11,166 bases of DNA from a virus. The notes beneath the pieces were generated by a model. That model did no database searches and had not been told where the DNA came from. It saw only the letters and a program-made list of their open reading frames with translations. Below, in pieces: positions 1-9,707 of this stretch. A program made the position numbers and the translations under genes. The stretch lies in UHGV virus genome UHGV-1660291; one strand, 5' to 3'. Positions within the stretch are counted from its first letter, which is position 1. The number at the start of each line of letters is the position of its first letter.

Positions 1-314
1 TTACCCATTACCAGCCGCTGGGCAACAGTGACCCGGCTCATACCGCAACCGCGCCCGGCGGGTTGAGTGCGAAAGCGCCTGCAATGACCCCGCTGATGCT
101 GGACACCTCCACCCGTAAGCTGGTTGCGTGGGATGGCACCACCGACGGTGCTGCCGTTGGCATTCTTGCAGTTGCTGCTGACCAGACCAGCACCACACTG
201 ACGTTCTACAAGTCCGGCACGTTCCGTTATGAGGATGTGCTCTGGCCGGAGGCTGCCAGCGACGAGACGAAAAAACGGACCGCGTTTGCCGGAACGGCAA
301 TCAGCATCGTTTAA
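1..314 (+). CDS. D: Head decoration protein gpD, 3' portion (start codon lies upstream of the window)
   Basis: Frame 3 is open from nt 3 to TAA at 312-314. Translation [45 protein letters not shown]...AGTAISIV is recognised from memory as lambda gpD-like. Sits immediately upstream of the major capsid gene. Confidence 0.9.
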
Positions 315-333
315 CCTGACCCTTCATCACTAA

Positions 334-356
334 AGGCCGCCTGTGCGGCTTTTTTT
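334..356 (+). terminator. D/E intergenic GC-rich hairpin followed by a T7 run (terminator-like or RNA-stabilising stem-loop)
   Basis: GCCGC (336-340), loop CTGT (341-344), GCGGC (345-349), then TTTTTTT (350-356); a second T7 run at 363-369 lies directly before the E start codon. Confidence 0.4.
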
Positions 357-369
357 ACGGGATTTTTTT

Positions 370-1395
370 ATGTCGATGTACACAACCGCCCAGCTGCTGG
401 CGGCAAATGAGCAGAAATTTAAGTTTGATCCGCTGTTTCTGCGTCTCTTTTTCCGTGAGAGCTATCCCTTCACCACGGAGAAAGTCTATCTCTCACAAAT
501 TCCTGGACTGGTAAACATGGCGCTGTACGTTTCGCCAATTGTTTCCGGTGAGGTTATCCGTTCCCGTGGCGGCTCCACCTCTGAATTTACGCCGGGTTAT
601 GTCAAGCCGAAGCATGAGGTGAATCCGCAGATGACCCTGCGTCGCCTGCCGGATGAAGATCCGCAGAATCTGGCGGACCCGGCTTACCGCCGCCGTCGCA
701 TCATCCTGCAGAACATGCGTGACGAAGAGCTGGCCATTGCTCAGGTCGAAGAGATGCAGGCAGTTTCTGCCGTGCTCAAGGGCAAATACACCATGACCGG
801 TGAAGCCTTCGATCCGGTTGAGGTGGATATGGGCCGCAGTGCGGCGAACAACATCACGCAGTCCGGCGGCACGGAGTGGAGCAAGCGTGACAAGTCCACG
901 TATGACCCGACCGACGATATCGAAGCCTACGCGCTGAACGCCAGCGGCGTGGTGAATATCATCGTGTTTGACCCGAAAGGCTGGGCGCTGTTCCGTTCCT
1001 TCAAAGCCGTCAGGGAGAAGCTGGATACCCGTCGCGGCTCTAATTCCGAGCTGGAGACAGCGGTAAAAGACCTGGGCGAAGCGGTGTCCTATAAGGGGAT
1101 GTATGGCGATACGGCGATCGTCGTGTATTCCGGACAGTACGTGGAAAACGACGTCAAAAAGAACTTTCTGCCGGACAACACGATGGTGCTGGGGAACACT
1201 CAGGCACGCGGTCTGCGCACCTATGGCTGCATTCAGGATGCGGACGCACAGCGCGAAGGTATTAACGCCTCTGCCCGCTACCCGAAAAACTGGGTGACCA
1301 CCGGCGATCCGGCGCGTGAGTTCACCATGATTCAGTCAGCACCGCTGATGCTGCTGGCTGATCCTGATGCGTTCGTGTCCGTACAACTGGCGTAA
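370..1395 (+). CDS. E: Major capsid protein gpE
   Basis: 341-codon ORF beginning ATG 370 (MSMYTTAQLLAANEQKF...) and ending TAA 1393-1395; recognised as lambda gpE-like; position after D. The six-frame ORF begins at an in-frame GTG at 343, which lies inside the upstream hairpin and was not used. Confidence 0.95.
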   Translation: MSMYTTAQLLAANEQKFKFDPLFLRLFFRESYPFTTEKVYLSQIPGLVNMALYVSPIVSGEVIRSRGGSTSEFTPGYVKPKHEVNPQMTLRRLPDEDPQNLADPAYRRRRIILQNMRDEELAIAQVEEMQAVSAVLKGKYTMTGEAFDPVEVDMGRSAANNITQSGGTEWSKRDKSTYDPTDDIEAYALNASGVVNIIVFDPKGWALFRSFKAVREKLDTRRGSNSELETAVKDLGEAVSYKGMYGDTAIVVYSGQYVENDVKKNFLPDNTMVLGNTQARGLRTYGCIQDADAQREGINASARYPKNWVTTGDPAREFTMIQSAPLMLLADPDAFVSVQLA

Positions 1396-1397
1396 TC

Positions 1398-1420
1398 ATG
1401 GCCCTTCGGGGCCATTTTCT
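1398..1420 (+). other. E/FI intergenic hairpin with UUCG tetraloop and U-rich 3' tail
   Basis: ATGGCCC (1398-1404), loop TTCG (1405-1408), GGGCCAT (1409-1415): perfect 7-bp stem, followed by TTTCTCTCT. Lies between the E stop and the FI ribosome-binding site (GGAGG 1427-1431). Confidence 0.45.
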
Positions 1421-1436
1421 CTCTGTGGAGGAGTCC

Positions 1437-1832
1437 ATGACGAAAGATGAACTGATTGCCCGTCTTCAGGTGCTGGGTGAGCAACTGAACCGTGATGTCA
1501 GCCTGACGGGGACGAAAGAAGAACTGGTGCTCCGTGTGGCAGAGCTGGAAGAGGAGCTTGATGACACGGATGACGCTGCCGGTCAGGACACATCTGTCAG
1601 CCCGGAAAATGCGCTGACCGGACATGAAAATGAGGTGGTATCAGCGCAGCCGGATACCGTGATTGATACGGCTGCTCTGGTCACGGTCGTGGCACTGGTG
1701 ACGCTGCATACTGATGCACTTCACGCCACGCGGGATGAGCCTGTGGCATTTGTGCTGCCGGGAACGGCGTTTCGTGTCTCTGCCGGTGTGGCAGCCGAAA
1801 TGACAGAACATGGCCTGGCCAGAATGCAATAA
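1437..1832 (+). CDS. FI: DNA packaging / head assembly protein gpFI
   Basis: ATG 1437 preceded by GGAGG at 1427-1431; translation MTKDELIARLQVLGEQLNRDVSLTGTKEEL... (132 aa) recognised as lambda FI-like; stop TAA 1830-1832. Confidence 0.92.
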   Translation: MTKDELIARLQVLGEQLNRDVSLTGTKEELVLRVAELEEELDDTDDAAGQDTSVSPENALTGHENEVVSAQPDTVIDTAALVTVVALVTLHTDALHATRDEPVAFVLPGTAFRVSAGVAAEMTEHGLARMQ

Positions 1833-4781: not shown

Positions 4782-7335
4782 ACCGGTAGGCGATCTGGTC
4801 GTTGATTTAAGTCTGGATGCGGCCAGATTTGACGAGCAGATGGCCAGAGTCAGGCGTCATTTTTCCGGTACGGAAACTGATGCGAAAAAAACAGCGGCAG
4901 TCGTTGAACAGTCGCTGAGCCGACAGGCGCTGGCTGCACAGAAAGCGGGGATTTCCGTCGGGCAGTATAAAGCCGCCATGCGTATGCTGCCTGCACAGTT
5001 CACCGACGTGGCCACGCAGCTTGCAGGCGGGCAAAGCCCGTGGCTGATCCTGCTGCAACAGGGGGGTCAGGTTAAGGACTCCTTCGGCGGGATGATCCCC
5101 ATGTTCAGGGGGCTTGCCGGTGCGATCACCCTGCCGATGGTGGGGGCCACCTCGCTGGCGGTGGCGACCGGTGCGCTGGCGTATGCCTGGTATCAGGGCA
5201 ACTCAACCCTGTCCGATTTCAACAAAACGCTGGTCCTTTCCGGCAATCAGGCGGGACTGACGGCAGATCGTATGCTGGTCCTGTCCAGAGCCGGGCAGGC
5301 GGCAGGGCTGACGTTTAACCAGACCAGCGAGTCACTCAGCGCACTGGTTAAGGCGGGGGTAAGCGGTGAGGCTCAGATTGCGTCCATCAGCCAGAGTGTG
5401 GCGCGTTTCTCCTCTGCATCCGGCGTGGAGGTGGACAAGGTCGCTGAAGCCTTCGGGAAGCTGACCACAGACCCGACGTCGGGGCTGACGGCGATGGCAC
5501 GCCAGTTCCATAACGTGACGGCGGAGCAGATTGCGTATGTTGCTCAGTTGCAGCGTTCCGGCGATGAAGCCGGGGCATTGCAGGCGGCGAACGAGGCCGC
5601 AACGAAAGGGTTTGATGACCAGACCCGCCGCCTGAAAGAGAACATGGGCACGCTGGAGACCTGGGCAGACAGGACTGCGCGGGCATTCAAATCCATGTGG
5701 GATGCGGTGCTGGATATTGGTCGTCCTGATACCGCGCAGGAGATGCTGATTAAGGCAGAGGCTGCGTTTAAGAAAGCAGACGACATCTGGAATCTGCGCA
5801 AGGATGATTATTTTGTTAACGATGAAGCGCGGGCGCGTTACTGGGATGATCGTGAAAAGGCCCGTCTTGCGCTTGAAGCCGCCCGAAAGAAGGCTGAGCA
5901 GCAGACTCAACAGGACAAAAATGCGCAGCAGCAGAGCGATACCGAAGCGTCACGGCTGAAATATACCGAAGAGGCGCAGAAGGCTTACGAACGGCTGCAG
6001 ACGCCGCTGGAGAAATATACCGCCCGTCAGGAAGAACTGAACAAGGCACTGAAAGACGGGAAAATCCTGCAGGCGGATTACAACACGCTGATGGCGGCGG
6101 CGAAAAAGGATTATGAAGCGACGCTGAAAAAGCCGAAACAGTCCGGCGTGAAGGTGTCTGCGGGCGATCGTCAGGAAGACAGTGCTCATGCTGCCCTGCT
6201 GACGCTTCAGGCAGAACTCCGGACGCTGGAGAAGCATGCCGGAGCGAATGAGAAAATCAGCCAGCAGCGCCGGGATTTGTGGAAGGCGGAGAGCCAGTTC
6301 GCGGTACTGGAGGAGGCGGCGCAACGTCGCCAGCTGTCTGCACAGGAGAAATCCCTGCTGGCGCATAAAGATGAGACGCTGGAGTACAAACGCCAGCTGG
6401 CTGCACTTGGCGACAAGGTTACGTATCAGGAGCGCCTGAACGCGCTGGCGCAGCAGGCGGATAAATTCGCACAGCAGCAACGGGCAAAACGGGCCGCCAT
6501 TGATGCGAAAAGCCGGGGGCTGACTGACCGGCAGGCAGAACGGGAAGCCACGGAACAGCGCCTGAAGGAACAGTATGGCGATAATCCGCTGGCGCTGAAT
6601 AACGTCATGTCAGAGCAGAAAAAGACCTGGGCGGCTGAAGACCAGCTTCGCGGGAACTGGATGGCAGGCCTGAAGTCCGGCTGGAGTGAGTGGGAAGAGA
6701 GCGCCACGGACAGTATGTCGCAGGTAAAAAGTGCAGCCACGCAGACCTTTGATGGTATTGCACAGAATATGGCGGCGATGCTGACCGGCAGTGAGCAGAA
6801 CTGGCGCAGCTTTACCCGTTCCGTGCTGTCCATGATGACAGAAATTCTGCTTAAGCAGGCAATGGTGGGGATTGTCGGGAGTATCGGCAGCGCCATTGGC
6901 GGGGCTGTTGGTGGCGGCGCATCAGCGTCAGGCGGTACAGCCATTCAGGCAGCTGCGGCGAAACTCCATTTTGCGACCGGGGGATTTACGGGAACCGGCG
7001 GCAAATATGAGCCAGCGGGGATTGTTCACCGTGGTGAATTTGTCTTCACGAAGGAGGCAACCAGCCGGATTGGCGTGGGGAATCTCTACCGGCTGATGCG
7101 CGGCTATGCCACCGGTGGTTATGTCGGTGGCACCGGAAGTCCGGCGCAAATGCGGCGTTCAGAGGGTATCAGGTTTGAGCAGAACAACAACGTGGTGATT
7201 CAGAACGACGGTACGAATGGTCTGCCAGGTCCACAGATGATGAAAGCAGTGTATGACATGGCCCGCAAGGGTGCCCGTGATGAAATTCAGACACAGATGC
7301 GTGATGGTGGCCTGTTCTCCGGAGGTGGACGATGA
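4774..7335 (+). CDS. H: Tail tape measure protein gpH
   Basis: 853-codon ORF; ATG 4774 with GGAGGA at 4761-4766; N-terminus MAEPVGDLVVDLSLDAARFDEQMARV... recognised as lambda H-like. Long central Q/A/E/K/R-rich (coiled-coil-like) region and a Gly-rich C-terminal segment. Stop TGA 7333-7335 overlaps the M start. Confidence 0.95.
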   Translation: MAEPVGDLVVDLSLDAARFDEQMARVRRHFSGTETDAKKTAAVVEQSLSRQALAAQKAGISVGQYKAAMRMLPAQFTDVATQLAGGQSPWLILLQQGGQVKDSFGGMIPMFRGLAGAITLPMVGATSLAVATGALAYAWYQGNSTLSDFNKTLVLSGNQAGLTADRMLVLSRAGQAAGLTFNQTSESLSALVKAGVSGEAQIASISQSVARFSSASGVEVDKVAEAFGKLTTDPTSGLTAMARQFHNVTAEQIAYVAQLQRSGDEAGALQAANEAATKGFDDQTRRLKENMGTLETWADRTARAFKSMWDAVLDIGRPDTAQEMLIKAEAAFKKADDIWNLRKDDYFVNDEARARYWDDREKARLALEAARKKAEQQTQQDKNAQQQSDTEASRLKYTEEAQKAYERLQTPLEKYTARQEELNKALKDGKILQADYNTLMAAAKKDYEATLKKPKQSGVKVSAGDRQEDSAHAALLTLQAELRTLEKHAGANEKISQQRRDLWKAESQFAVLEEAAQRRQLSAQEKSLLAHKDETLEYKRQLAALGDKVTYQERLNALAQQADKFAQQQRAKRAAIDAKSRGLTDRQAEREATEQRLKEQYGDNPLALNNVMSEQKKTWAAEDQLRGNWMAGLKSGWSEWEESATDSMSQVKSAATQTFDGIAQNMAAMLTGSEQNWRSFTRSVLSMMTEILLKQAMVGIVGSIGSAIGGAVGGGASASGGTAIQAAAAKLHFATGGFTGTGGKYEPAGIVHRGEFVFTKEATSRIGVGNLYRLMRGYATGGYVGGTGSPAQMRRSEGIRFEQNNNVVIQNDGTNGLPGPQMMKAVYDMARKGARDEIQTQMRDGGLFSGGGR

Positions 7336-8364: not shown

Positions 8365-9108
8365 ATGACACAGACAGAATCAGCGATTCTGGCGCACGCC
8401 CGGCGATGTGCGCCAGCGGAGTCGTGCGGCTTCGTGGTAAGCACGCCGGAGGGGGAAAGATATTTTCCCTGCGTGAATATCTCCGGTGAGCCGGAGGCGT
8501 ATTTCCGGATGGCTCCGGAGGACTGGCTGCAGGCAGAAATTCAGGGTGAGATTGTGGCGCTGGTCCACAGTCACCCCGGTGGTCTGCCCTGGCTGAGTGA
8601 GGCTGACCGGCGGCTGCAGGTGCAGAGTGATTTGCCGTGGTGGCTGGTCTGCCGGGGGACGATTCATAAGTTCCGCTGTGTGCCGCATCTCACCGGGCGG
8701 CGCTTTGAGCACGGGGTGACGGACTGTTACACGCTGTTCCGGGATGCTTACCATCTGGCGGGGATTGAGATGCCGGATTTTCATCGTGAGGATGACTGGT
8801 GGCGTCACGGTCAGAATCTCTATCTTGACAATATGGAGGCAACGGGTTTTTACCGTGTCGCACTGACAGAGGCACAACCGGGCGATGTGCTGCTGTGCTG
8901 TTTTGGTTCATCGGTGCCGAATCATGCCGCCATTTACTGTGGTGACGGCGAGCTGCTGCACCATATTCCTGAACAACTGAGCAAACGAGAGAGGTATACC
9001 GACAAATGGCAGCGACGCACACACTCCCTCTGGCGTCACCGGGCATGGCACGCATCTGCCTTTACGGGGATTTACAACGATTTGGCCGCCGCATCGATCT
9101 GCGTGTGA
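8365..9108 (+). CDS. K: Tail tip assembly protein gpK (JAB/MPN metallopeptidase plus NlpC/P60 domain); long form from ATG 8365, alternative internal start ATG 8509
   Basis: 247-codon ORF. JAMM motif visible: E19 in AESCGF (nt 8419-8421) and H68-S-H70-x7-S78-x2-D81 (nt 8566-8607). NlpC/P60-like Cys121 in GVTDCYTLF (8725-8727) and His187/His199. Lambda K is annotated from the internal Met in my memory (199 aa), but E19 lies upstream of that Met. Stop TGA 9106-9108. Confidence 0.8.
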   Translation: MTQTESAILAHARRCAPAESCGFVVSTPEGERYFPCVNISGEPEAYFRMAPEDWLQAEIQGEIVALVHSHPGGLPWLSEADRRLQVQSDLPWWLVCRGTIHKFRCVPHLTGRRFEHGVTDCYTLFRDAYHLAGIEMPDFHREDDWWRHGQNLYLDNMEATGFYRVALTEAQPGDVLLCCFGSSVPNHAAIYCGDGELLHHIPEQLSKRERYTDKWQRRTHSLWRHRAWHASAFTGIYNDLAAASICV

Positions 9109-9647: not shown

Positions 9648-9665
9648 TGCAAAACATTTTATGTG

Positions 9666-9687
9666 AAACCGCCTGCGGGCGGTTTTG
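9666..9687 (+). terminator. I/J intergenic hairpin with T-tract (terminator-like)
   Basis: AAACCGCC (9666-9673), loop TGCG (9674-9677), GGCGGTTT (9678-9685): 8-bp stem whose 3' arm runs into TTTT, 20 nt upstream of the J start. Confidence 0.4.
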
Positions 9688-9707
9688 TCGTTTATGGAGC
9701 GTGACGA

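Follow-up and report, generated by a model that had tools for sequence, protein, structure and literature searches.

The late operon of bacteriophage lambda is the textbook example of a single long antiterminated transcript from which proteins are obtained in very unequal yields. Its expression is subject to antitermination by Q, and late transcription already stops at tR' when Q is missing. Among the head proteins, those made in greatest abundance are D and E. In other systems, hairpins protect mRNA 3' ends, as in the malE-malF REP elements, Rhodobacter puf and phiX174, and intercistronic hairpins lie 3' of cistrons whose products are needed in larger amounts, among them the J/F/G/H terminators of phiX174 and the CUUCGG hairpins of T4. 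Loops of the UUCG and GNRA types are common in natural terminators.

A terminator has been predicted directly after capsid gene 13 of SPP1, within the late genes (PMC6316719), and a study based on a terminator-mutation library deals with how terminators raise the stability of upstream mRNA (PMC11696848). Among lambda-like phages, the N15 record contains two stem_loop features (5980-6004 and 7053-7073) labelled as 'putative rho-indep. transcription terminator', whose coordinates coincide exactly with the orthologues of the two hairpins analysed here, located in the spacers between genes D and E (D/E) and between E and FI (E/FI). The D/E element is also annotated as a rho-independent terminator in phages 434 (6100-6120) and mEp237 (5938-5958). 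All these annotations are predictions, and both hairpins are unannotated in the lambda RefSeq record. An earlier note on this DNA had presented the hairpins as an open oddity. Lambda itself has the same elements, and the records of N15, 434 and mEp237 already list them as putative terminators, so the finding is sound but ordinary.

Hairpins in the spacers flanking gene E

The DNA analysed (hereafter the window, 11,166 nt in total) corresponds to the head-tail portion of a late operon of the lambda type and shows approximately 97% identity to lambda, with values of 96-98.6% against lambdoid phages for positions 1-1800, which cover D, E and FI (megablast). According to the list of open reading frames, the gene order is the same as in lambda (D, E, FI, FII, Z, U, V, G/T, H, M, L, K, I, J). 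At the protein level, E is 97.7% identical to its lambda counterpart (tblastn), and the 434 and lambda records have FI at the corresponding place. Given this 97-98% identity and the shared gene order, the question raised by the hairpins is that of the lambda D/E and E/FI spacers. By homology to lambda and its Q system, we also agree with the earlier placement of both hairpins inside an antiterminated operon. The features considered are listed in Table 1.

Table 1. Positions of genes, hairpins and associated signals in the window.
Feature	Position	Strand	Evidence
Gene D, 3' part; head decoration protein	1..314 (stop 312-314)	+	ORF list; megablast matches so annotated
D/E hairpin, canonical intrinsic-terminator architecture	332..356	+	Folding; conservation; orthologue annotations
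Translation-initiation region of E, with a weak Shine-Dalgarno, GGGA, at 359-362 and a U7 spacer at 363-369	357..369	+	434 record places RBS here
Gene E; major capsid protein, 341 aa	370..1395 (ATG 370-372, stop 1393-1395)	+	ORF list; tblastn
E/FI hairpin, perfect 7-bp stem AUGGCCC/GGGCCAU with C(UUCG)G tetraloop	1398..1415	+	Scan; folding; conservation; N15 orthologue annotation
U/C-rich tail UUUCUCUCU 3' of the E/FI hairpin; moderate U-tract	1416..1424	+	Scan; comparison
FI Shine-Dalgarno GGAGGAG (1427-1433) and gene FI (ATG 1437, stop ends 1832)	1427..1832	+	ORF list
Third hairpin, I/J spacer: GAAACCGCC-UGCG-GGCGGUUUU (UNCG loop), then GUCGUUU	9665..9686	+	Folding

In the D/E spacer, the core stem pairs GCCGC (336-340) with GCGGC (345-349) around the loop CUGU (341-344), and is preceded by an A-tract and followed by a U7 (350-356). 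If positions 332-335 also pair with 350-353, through one G·U and three A-U pairs, the stem reaches nine pairs (AAAGGCCGC/GCGGCTTT). The hairpin has a folding energy of -12.2 kcal/mol (z = -3.5 against dinucleotide shuffles), with pair probabilities of 0.94-0.98 in a 400-nt context. Both sequence elements expected of an intrinsic terminator are found: a GC-rich stem of at least 5 bp with a loop of 3-8 nt (here, five G-C pairs and a 4-nt loop), and a U-tract directly 3' of the stem, the U7 being invariant in 28 distinct spacers. A second T7 (363-369) adjoins the ATG of E. In relatives, the corresponding leader spacer is either A-rich (GGGAAAAATCT) or U-rich, indicating that what is kept is AU-richness and not the second U7 as such.

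The E/FI hairpin begins 2 nt 3' of the E stop codon, and consists of the arms ATGGCCC (1398-1404) and GGGCCAT (1409-1415) and the loop TTCG (1405-1408), followed by TTTCTCTCT. Closure of the loop by the C1404-G1409 pair assigns it to the extra-stable C(UUCG)G/UNCG class, and the hairpin also conforms to the stem and loop pattern of intrinsic terminators (seven pairs, five of them G-C, with a 4-nt loop). Its folding energy is -12.9 kcal/mol (z = -3.45), a value matched by none of 200 shuffles, and in a 400-nt context pair probabilities range from 0.83 to 1.0, with 0.45 for the outermost A-U pair. The tail, with five U in eight positions, passes the terminator scan; in lambda it reads UUGUUUCUC, an interrupted U-tract, and it is variable or absent in relatives. 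The 3' ends of the two elements in the window (about 356 and about 1416-1424) correspond to lambda positions 6120-6122 and 7181-7190. A small hairpin predicted over the FI start (1425-1438) was dropped, as it is broken in near-identical relatives.

The structures reported in the earlier note are therefore confirmed to the base: the GCCGC-CTGT-GCGGC hairpin with its T7 at 336-356, the second T7 at 363-369 just before the ATG at 370, and the perfect 7-bp stem with TTCG at 1398-1415. Their resemblance to intrinsic terminators is likewise borne out by stem, loop and tail, and the folding calculation that had been proposed as a check gives two stable structures of about -12 kcal/mol with z values near -3.5, whose pairs mostly have probabilities above 0.95 in the 400-nt context.

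Folding energy was nevertheless rejected as a test of significance, because GC-rich coding sequence yields many hairpins that are equally good or better. Indeed, 137 non-overlapping local hairpins on the + strand of the window reach -8 kcal/mol or better, and among those inside genes, dozens are more stable than the ones at D/E and E/FI. A consensus terminator scan of the window returned 13 sites versus 9.5 +/- 3.4 in shuffles, and thus no enrichment; E/FI ranked first and D/E was missed, probably because greedy stem extension consumes four of its seven T's. A cmscan search of the whole window against Rfam (E <= 1) gave no family match, with one spurious miRNA hit elsewhere.

What goes beyond chance is not energy but placement in untranslated spacers together with conservation. 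Only the D/E, E/FI and I/J spacers of the window are longer than 20 nt (55, 41 and 60 nt, respectively), and in all three a T-rich run comes after a short tetraloop hairpin that is GC-rich and perfectly paired; the I/J hairpin has a pair probability of 0.99 when folded in context. For 20 lineages that span 100-57% E identity, the strongest hairpin within 50 nt on either side of E has a mean energy of -11.65 kcal/mol at D/E and -12.99 kcal/mol at E/FI, compared with -7.25 +/- 3.1 kcal/mol in 240 control coding windows inside E (Mann-Whitney p ~1e-8, a generous value, as the lineages are related and the counts are not fully independent phylogenetically). A hairpin of -11 kcal/mol or better is found in 75% of the spacers versus 11% of the control windows. 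In addition, the + strand folds better than the - strand in 15 of the 20 lineages at D/E, and in the same number at E/FI.

Conservation of the hairpins in lambda-like and distant relatives

A total of 150 loci encoding E relatives were gathered from GenBank phages, GTDB genomes and IMG/VR. The set of E flanks comprised 42 distinct versions per spacer, with E identity of at least 56%, and was supplemented on the E/FI side by the flanks of two loci at 31%. Of about 20 lineages, with E identities as low as 57%, almost all have a hairpin on either side of E; a few relatives lack one of the two, such as L049 on the D/E side and L067 on the E/FI side.

At D/E, the stem GCCGC/GCGGC and its T6-8 are essentially invariant from 100% to 72% E identity, and this constant stem carries 15 different loop sequences. 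Stems in more diverged lineages (CCGCC/GGCGG, GGCCAC/GTGGCC, GGTCGC/GCGGCC and GGCTGCC/GGCGGCC) are each followed by T5-7. In a sequence-only MAFFT alignment, 97% of the D/E cells are paired, and six of the seven one-sided stem changes leave a wobble pair (U·G or G·U), possible in RNA of the + strand alone. No double (covarying) changes were found at D/E on this alignment, since the stem is conserved in sequence and MAFFT forces unlike stems together; support for the D/E structure comes instead from its invariance under loop drift and from diverged lineages folded independently.

The E/FI position shows at least 15 distinct stems between lineages, with both-sided changes in five of the seven pairs. 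Here, 79% of the cells are paired, as opposed to 70% after shuffling, and the covariation score is higher than in any of 500 shuffles or any slid control. RNAalifold recovers the cores of both D/E and E/FI. Thus, the conservation and compensatory substitutions suggested beforehand as a check are indeed found, with hairpins kept at both flanks of E and compensatory changes in the E/FI stems. After the E/FI hairpin, several lineages and most of the distant relatives have a weak U-tract or none.

Loop composition at E/FI also varies among lineages. UUCG or other UNCG loops cap independent stems in L043 (GGGGC-UUCG-GCCCC), L050, Suzuki and Smarc1; UACG is also among the UNCG loops that replace UUCG, and UGCG/UCCG variants occur in L032 and L039. 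GNRA loops (GAAA, GCAA) take its place in other lineages, N15/phi80-type stems have AUUC, UGUC, UGUU or UUUC, and UUAG is found in some near-identical prophages, such as L142. The UUCG cap highlighted in the earlier note is therefore real in this window, but it is not essential, given that both N15/phi80-type phages and near-identical prophages differ. By our own count, UNCG or GNRA loops close about 8 of 22 independent stems at the E/FI position, versus about 5% by chance, an excess that points to selection for thermodynamic stability of the RNA. As judged from these comparisons of sequence, both hairpins are sense-strand RNA structures under purifying selection in the untranslated spacers flanking E.

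Eight phages with capsid proteins that share just 26-35% identity with E (Suzuki, Vibrio K290, Smarc1, iEPS5, AchV4, RcDora, PPF1 and pPM_01) were also examined. All eight have a post-capsid spacer of 55-82 nt with a hairpin of -14.6 to -24.5 kcal/mol, and a good U-tract is absent from most of these hairpins. On the other side of the capsid gene, K290 (33% identity) is the only one of the eight with an A-tract/hairpin/U6 arrangement between the decoration and capsid genes. This spacer is often reduced to 11-12 nt, with no hairpin, in relatives; Smarc1, iEPS5, AchV4 and pPM_01 are cases of this length. The presence of the post-capsid hairpin in all eight phages, and of the D/E type in K290 alone, indicates that the post-capsid hairpin is the deeply conserved feature, and the putative D/E terminator is, on this sampling, a feature of the lambda-like branch. 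The idea that D is a 'moron' with its own terminator was rejected, as every relative examined has its decoration gene ahead of the capsid gene, often with such a short, hairpin-free spacer between them.

Possible roles of the hairpins during late expression

Since the late polymerase, going by the biology of lambda, is Q-modified and terminator-resistant, the D/E and E/FI sites cannot end the operon. We tentatively put forward that they are terminator-type intercistronic hairpins that would act mainly as barriers to 3' exonucleases, with insulation as a second function. During lytic growth, Q-modified RNA polymerase would read through the hairpins, as through all late-operon terminators in lambda, and folding of the hairpins would take place in the transcript all the same. 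Once an endonuclease has cut further downstream, they would halt 3'-to-5' exonucleases such as PNPase and RNase II, so that the mRNA segments ending with D and E would outlast those of neighbouring cistrons, helping to supply two proteins needed at approximately 400 copies per head. In a second, subordinate role, these sites, and above all D/E because of its invariant U7, might stop polymerase lacking the Q modification, and in this way keep the capsid genes silent in the lysogen. Of the functions proposed in the earlier note, mRNA stability or processing and attenuation may well stand, as they fit the comparative data (sense-strand selection, invariant D/E U-tract), and the persistence in distant relatives of the post-capsid hairpin rather than the U-tract is consistent with them.

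The main rival reading, possible although somewhat doubtful, is that the hairpins are primarily working terminators or insulators, any effect on mRNA stability being incidental. Unmodified polymerase arriving from upstream read-through, from spurious or host promoters, or in the prophage state would then be released at D/E, E/FI and I/J, so that capsid and tail-fibre genes would be made only from antiterminated transcripts. The D/E hairpin has all the features of a strong intrinsic terminator (GC stem, 4-nt loop, U7 and upstream A-tract), curators of the N15, 434 and mEp237 records labelled the sites as rho-independent terminators, and the same A-tract/hairpin/U6 design recurs upstream of the capsid gene in Vibrio phage K290 despite only 33% identity. 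Moreover, the D/E U-tract is invariant in 28 distinct spacers while the loop drifts freely, and because an exonuclease barrier needs no U-tract, this invariance argues for selected termination or another function of the U-tract. However, a usable U-tract is often absent at the E/FI position, with tails such as CTGGAGGAA, TGTGGAGAC, CCCTCCCCA and AAATTGAATT in relatives, and blocking of late transcription without Q is a task already carried out by tR'.

A more specific proposal, which we regard as rather unlikely, is that the D/E hairpin with its invariant U-tract, located just ahead of the E ribosome-binding site, and the hairpin behind the gene form a fail-safe by which capsid protein is made only from Q-antiterminated transcripts. 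If true, stray capsid expression would be costly in a lysogen, for example by triggering capsid-sensing host defence systems, and the internal terminators that are 'ignored' by the late polymerase would be a functional layer of lysogen safety instead of leftovers.

A role in translation also seems improbable. Here, the D/E hairpin and U-tract would be part of the E leader, either as a U-rich S1-binding enhancer or standby site or as a hairpin that frees the RBS from long-range pairing, and the E/FI hairpin would uncouple FI translation from that of E. The weak Shine-Dalgarno sequence of E (GGGA), the gene for the most abundant head protein, is compatible with such a role, as are the location of the U7 (ending at 356) 2 nt 5' of this GGGA (starting at 359), the conservation of the entire 3' half of the D/E spacer, and a D2-type lineage with a strong AAGGA Shine-Dalgarno and no U-tract. 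Nevertheless, L050 combines a U-tract with a strong GGAGG, the predicted FI-start hairpin (1425-1438) does not survive in near-identical relatives, and distant phages retain the post-capsid hairpin whatever comes next. The earlier suggestion that the hairpins directly set translational ratios is not supported either, as they overlap neither RBS, and direct occlusion is consequently not the mechanism. Sampson et al. reportedly concluded in 1988 that the ratios of lambda late proteins result mainly from translation-initiation rates on an evenly transcribed operon, a view that leaves less room for control at the mRNA level, including that proposed here.

A further reading, drawn by analogy with lambda PreS and StxS and very improbable, is that the D/E terminator end defines a discrete 3'-end-derived regulatory RNA or binds Hfq on it. 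StxS arises from tR' (PMC7547250), and D/E carries the same module of GC hairpin and U7, but no promoter-like site was found upstream in the window, and a RIL-seq study gives LPR1, LPR2 and 6S as the only lambda sRNAs, with no D.E or E.Fi entries in the portion of its tables covered. Finally, although equally stable hairpins are numerous in the window and terminator-like sites are not enriched over shuffles, chance palindromes or DNA-level elements devoid of RNA function (protein-binding or cruciform sites, recombination linkers) are effectively excluded by the maintenance of position across about 20 lineages with different stem sequences, by one-sided changes that are mostly wobbles, for which the opposite strand would have A·C mismatches, by free loop drift under a fixed stem, and by the usually better folding of the + strand. 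A bidirectional terminator is disfavoured along with DNA-level elements in view of the poor - strand tail at D/E, the predominance of wobbles among one-sided changes and the weaker - strand folding.

The importance of these elements is modest, and no new kind of element is revealed. A full-text literature search, which included CRISPRi, microarray, codon-adaptation, epsilon34 and ONT-cappable-seq studies, returned nothing on the hairpin sites, and in the literature found the three internal terminator-like hairpins seem never to have been functionally tested. They represent a clear and inexpensive experimental target for modelling or re-engineering lambda late expression, as in D-display vectors and refactored phages. 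A hairpin on both sides of the capsid gene survives complete turnover of stem sequence, and the post-capsid one persists down to approximately 30% protein identity.

Comparison with known systems

In 434 and Perceval, the D/E hairpin and its U7 are identical to those of the window, and E/FI differs in the tail alone. The E/FI tail of the window (UUUUCUCUCU) is slightly richer in U than that of lambda (UUGUUUCUCU), with otherwise no difference of substance. In N15 and phi80, the hairpins occupy the same D/E and E/FI positions, with a compensatory change from A-U to G-C and different loops.

With the Rho-independent terminators of E. coli, the elements share a tetraloop on a stem of 5-7 bp rich in G and C, with a U-tract on its 3' side and, at D/E, an A-tract upstream. 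In contrast to those terminators, both hairpins lie inside an operon read by antiterminated polymerase, and the E/FI U-tract is interrupted and missing in several relatives. Lambda PreS/LPR1 (tL2a) and StxS (tR') likewise consist of a terminator hairpin and poly-U in or before an antiterminated operon, but, unlike for these, the RIL-seq tables covered gave no sign at D/E or E/FI of a discrete small RNA or an association with Hfq.

The proposed barrier to 3' exonucleases has its own counterparts. The malE-malF REP elements are far longer than the D/E and E/FI stems. The terminator predicted after SPP1 gene 13 resembles the hairpin following E in being a stable hairpin just 3' of an abundantly needed cistron (PMC6316719). 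In sequence and position, the D/E and E/FI hairpins fit the pattern of putative decay barriers, being stable, untranslated hairpins conserved as RNA structures just 3' of a highly expressed cistron.

Terminator-like hairpins in the I/J and D/E spacers

A third terminator-like hairpin was identified in the spacer between I and J, shortly upstream of the J start (table). Its loop, UGCG, belongs to the UNCG class, and the stem is followed by GUCGUUU; the whole spacer folds with an energy of -20.6 kcal/mol, and the pair probability of the core reaches 0.99. The most canonical terminator of the window is the hairpin in the D/E spacer (334-356), which was not reported by the consensus terminator scan of the window. 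This miss may be explained by G·U and A·U pairing that lengthens the stem and would consume four of the seven T's. Among near-identical prophages, the T-runs of this spacer (350-369) are polymorphic in length, both the terminator run and the run preceding the E ATG varying from T6 to T8, differences that could reflect sequencing noise at homopolymers or else genuine slippage.

Hairpins outside and inside coding sequence
Hairpin	Position	Arms and loop	Location	Energy (kcal/mol)
Terminator-like	9665-9686	GAAACCGCC-UGCG-GGCGGUUUU	I/J spacer (9648-9707)	
Perfect 9-bp arms	2840-2868	CGGGGCGAC/GTCGCCCCG	ORF homologous to lambda U	-18.5
10-bp arms, one G·U included	8389-8416	CTGGCGCACG/TGTGCGCCAG	Coding sequence	-17.0

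FI start codons and the post-capsid hairpin

The first three bases of the 5' arm of the E/FI hairpin form an ATG in the FI frame, and no stop codon intervenes (ORF 1398-1832), so that initiation at 1398 would lengthen FI by 13 codons (1398-1436). Nevertheless, this ATG is probably not used, since it lacks a Shine-Dalgarno sequence and is buried in the stem. In Escherichia phage D2 (OM475427.1; L006 1948 in our set of loci encoding relatives of the capsid protein E), the hairpin that follows the capsid gene, GGGGGC-GAAAUG-CCCCC, carries the annotated FI start codon in its loop. This deposited start is probably wrong, because an ATG further downstream, preceded by GGGGG, matches the conserved FI N-terminus M-A-T-K-E in the alignment.

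Lambda-like contigs in unrelated assemblies

Contigs 95-99% identical to lambda E (loci L010-L025, L037, L047, L053-L059, L062, L065, and L068) are present in genome assemblies from unrelated organisms, including Chromatium, Neobacillus, Kitasatospora, Paenibacillus, Bradyrhizobium, Shewanella, an Akkermansia MAG, and Prevotella, among others. Many of them show ~1x coverage or are ~48.4-48.5 kb long. Similarly, the lambda-sized 'Campylobacter phage CJLB-4' (MW057783.1) exhibits 96.8% identity over window bases 1-1800, a figure equal to that of lambda. Both the contigs and this phage look like contamination with lambda control DNA, and not like real host range.

Strongest local hairpins

The two most stable local hairpins of the window both lie inside coding sequence (table) and form strong hairpins on the - strand as well. 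The one with 10-bp arms is located shortly past the start of ORF 8365-9108, the counterpart of lambda K.
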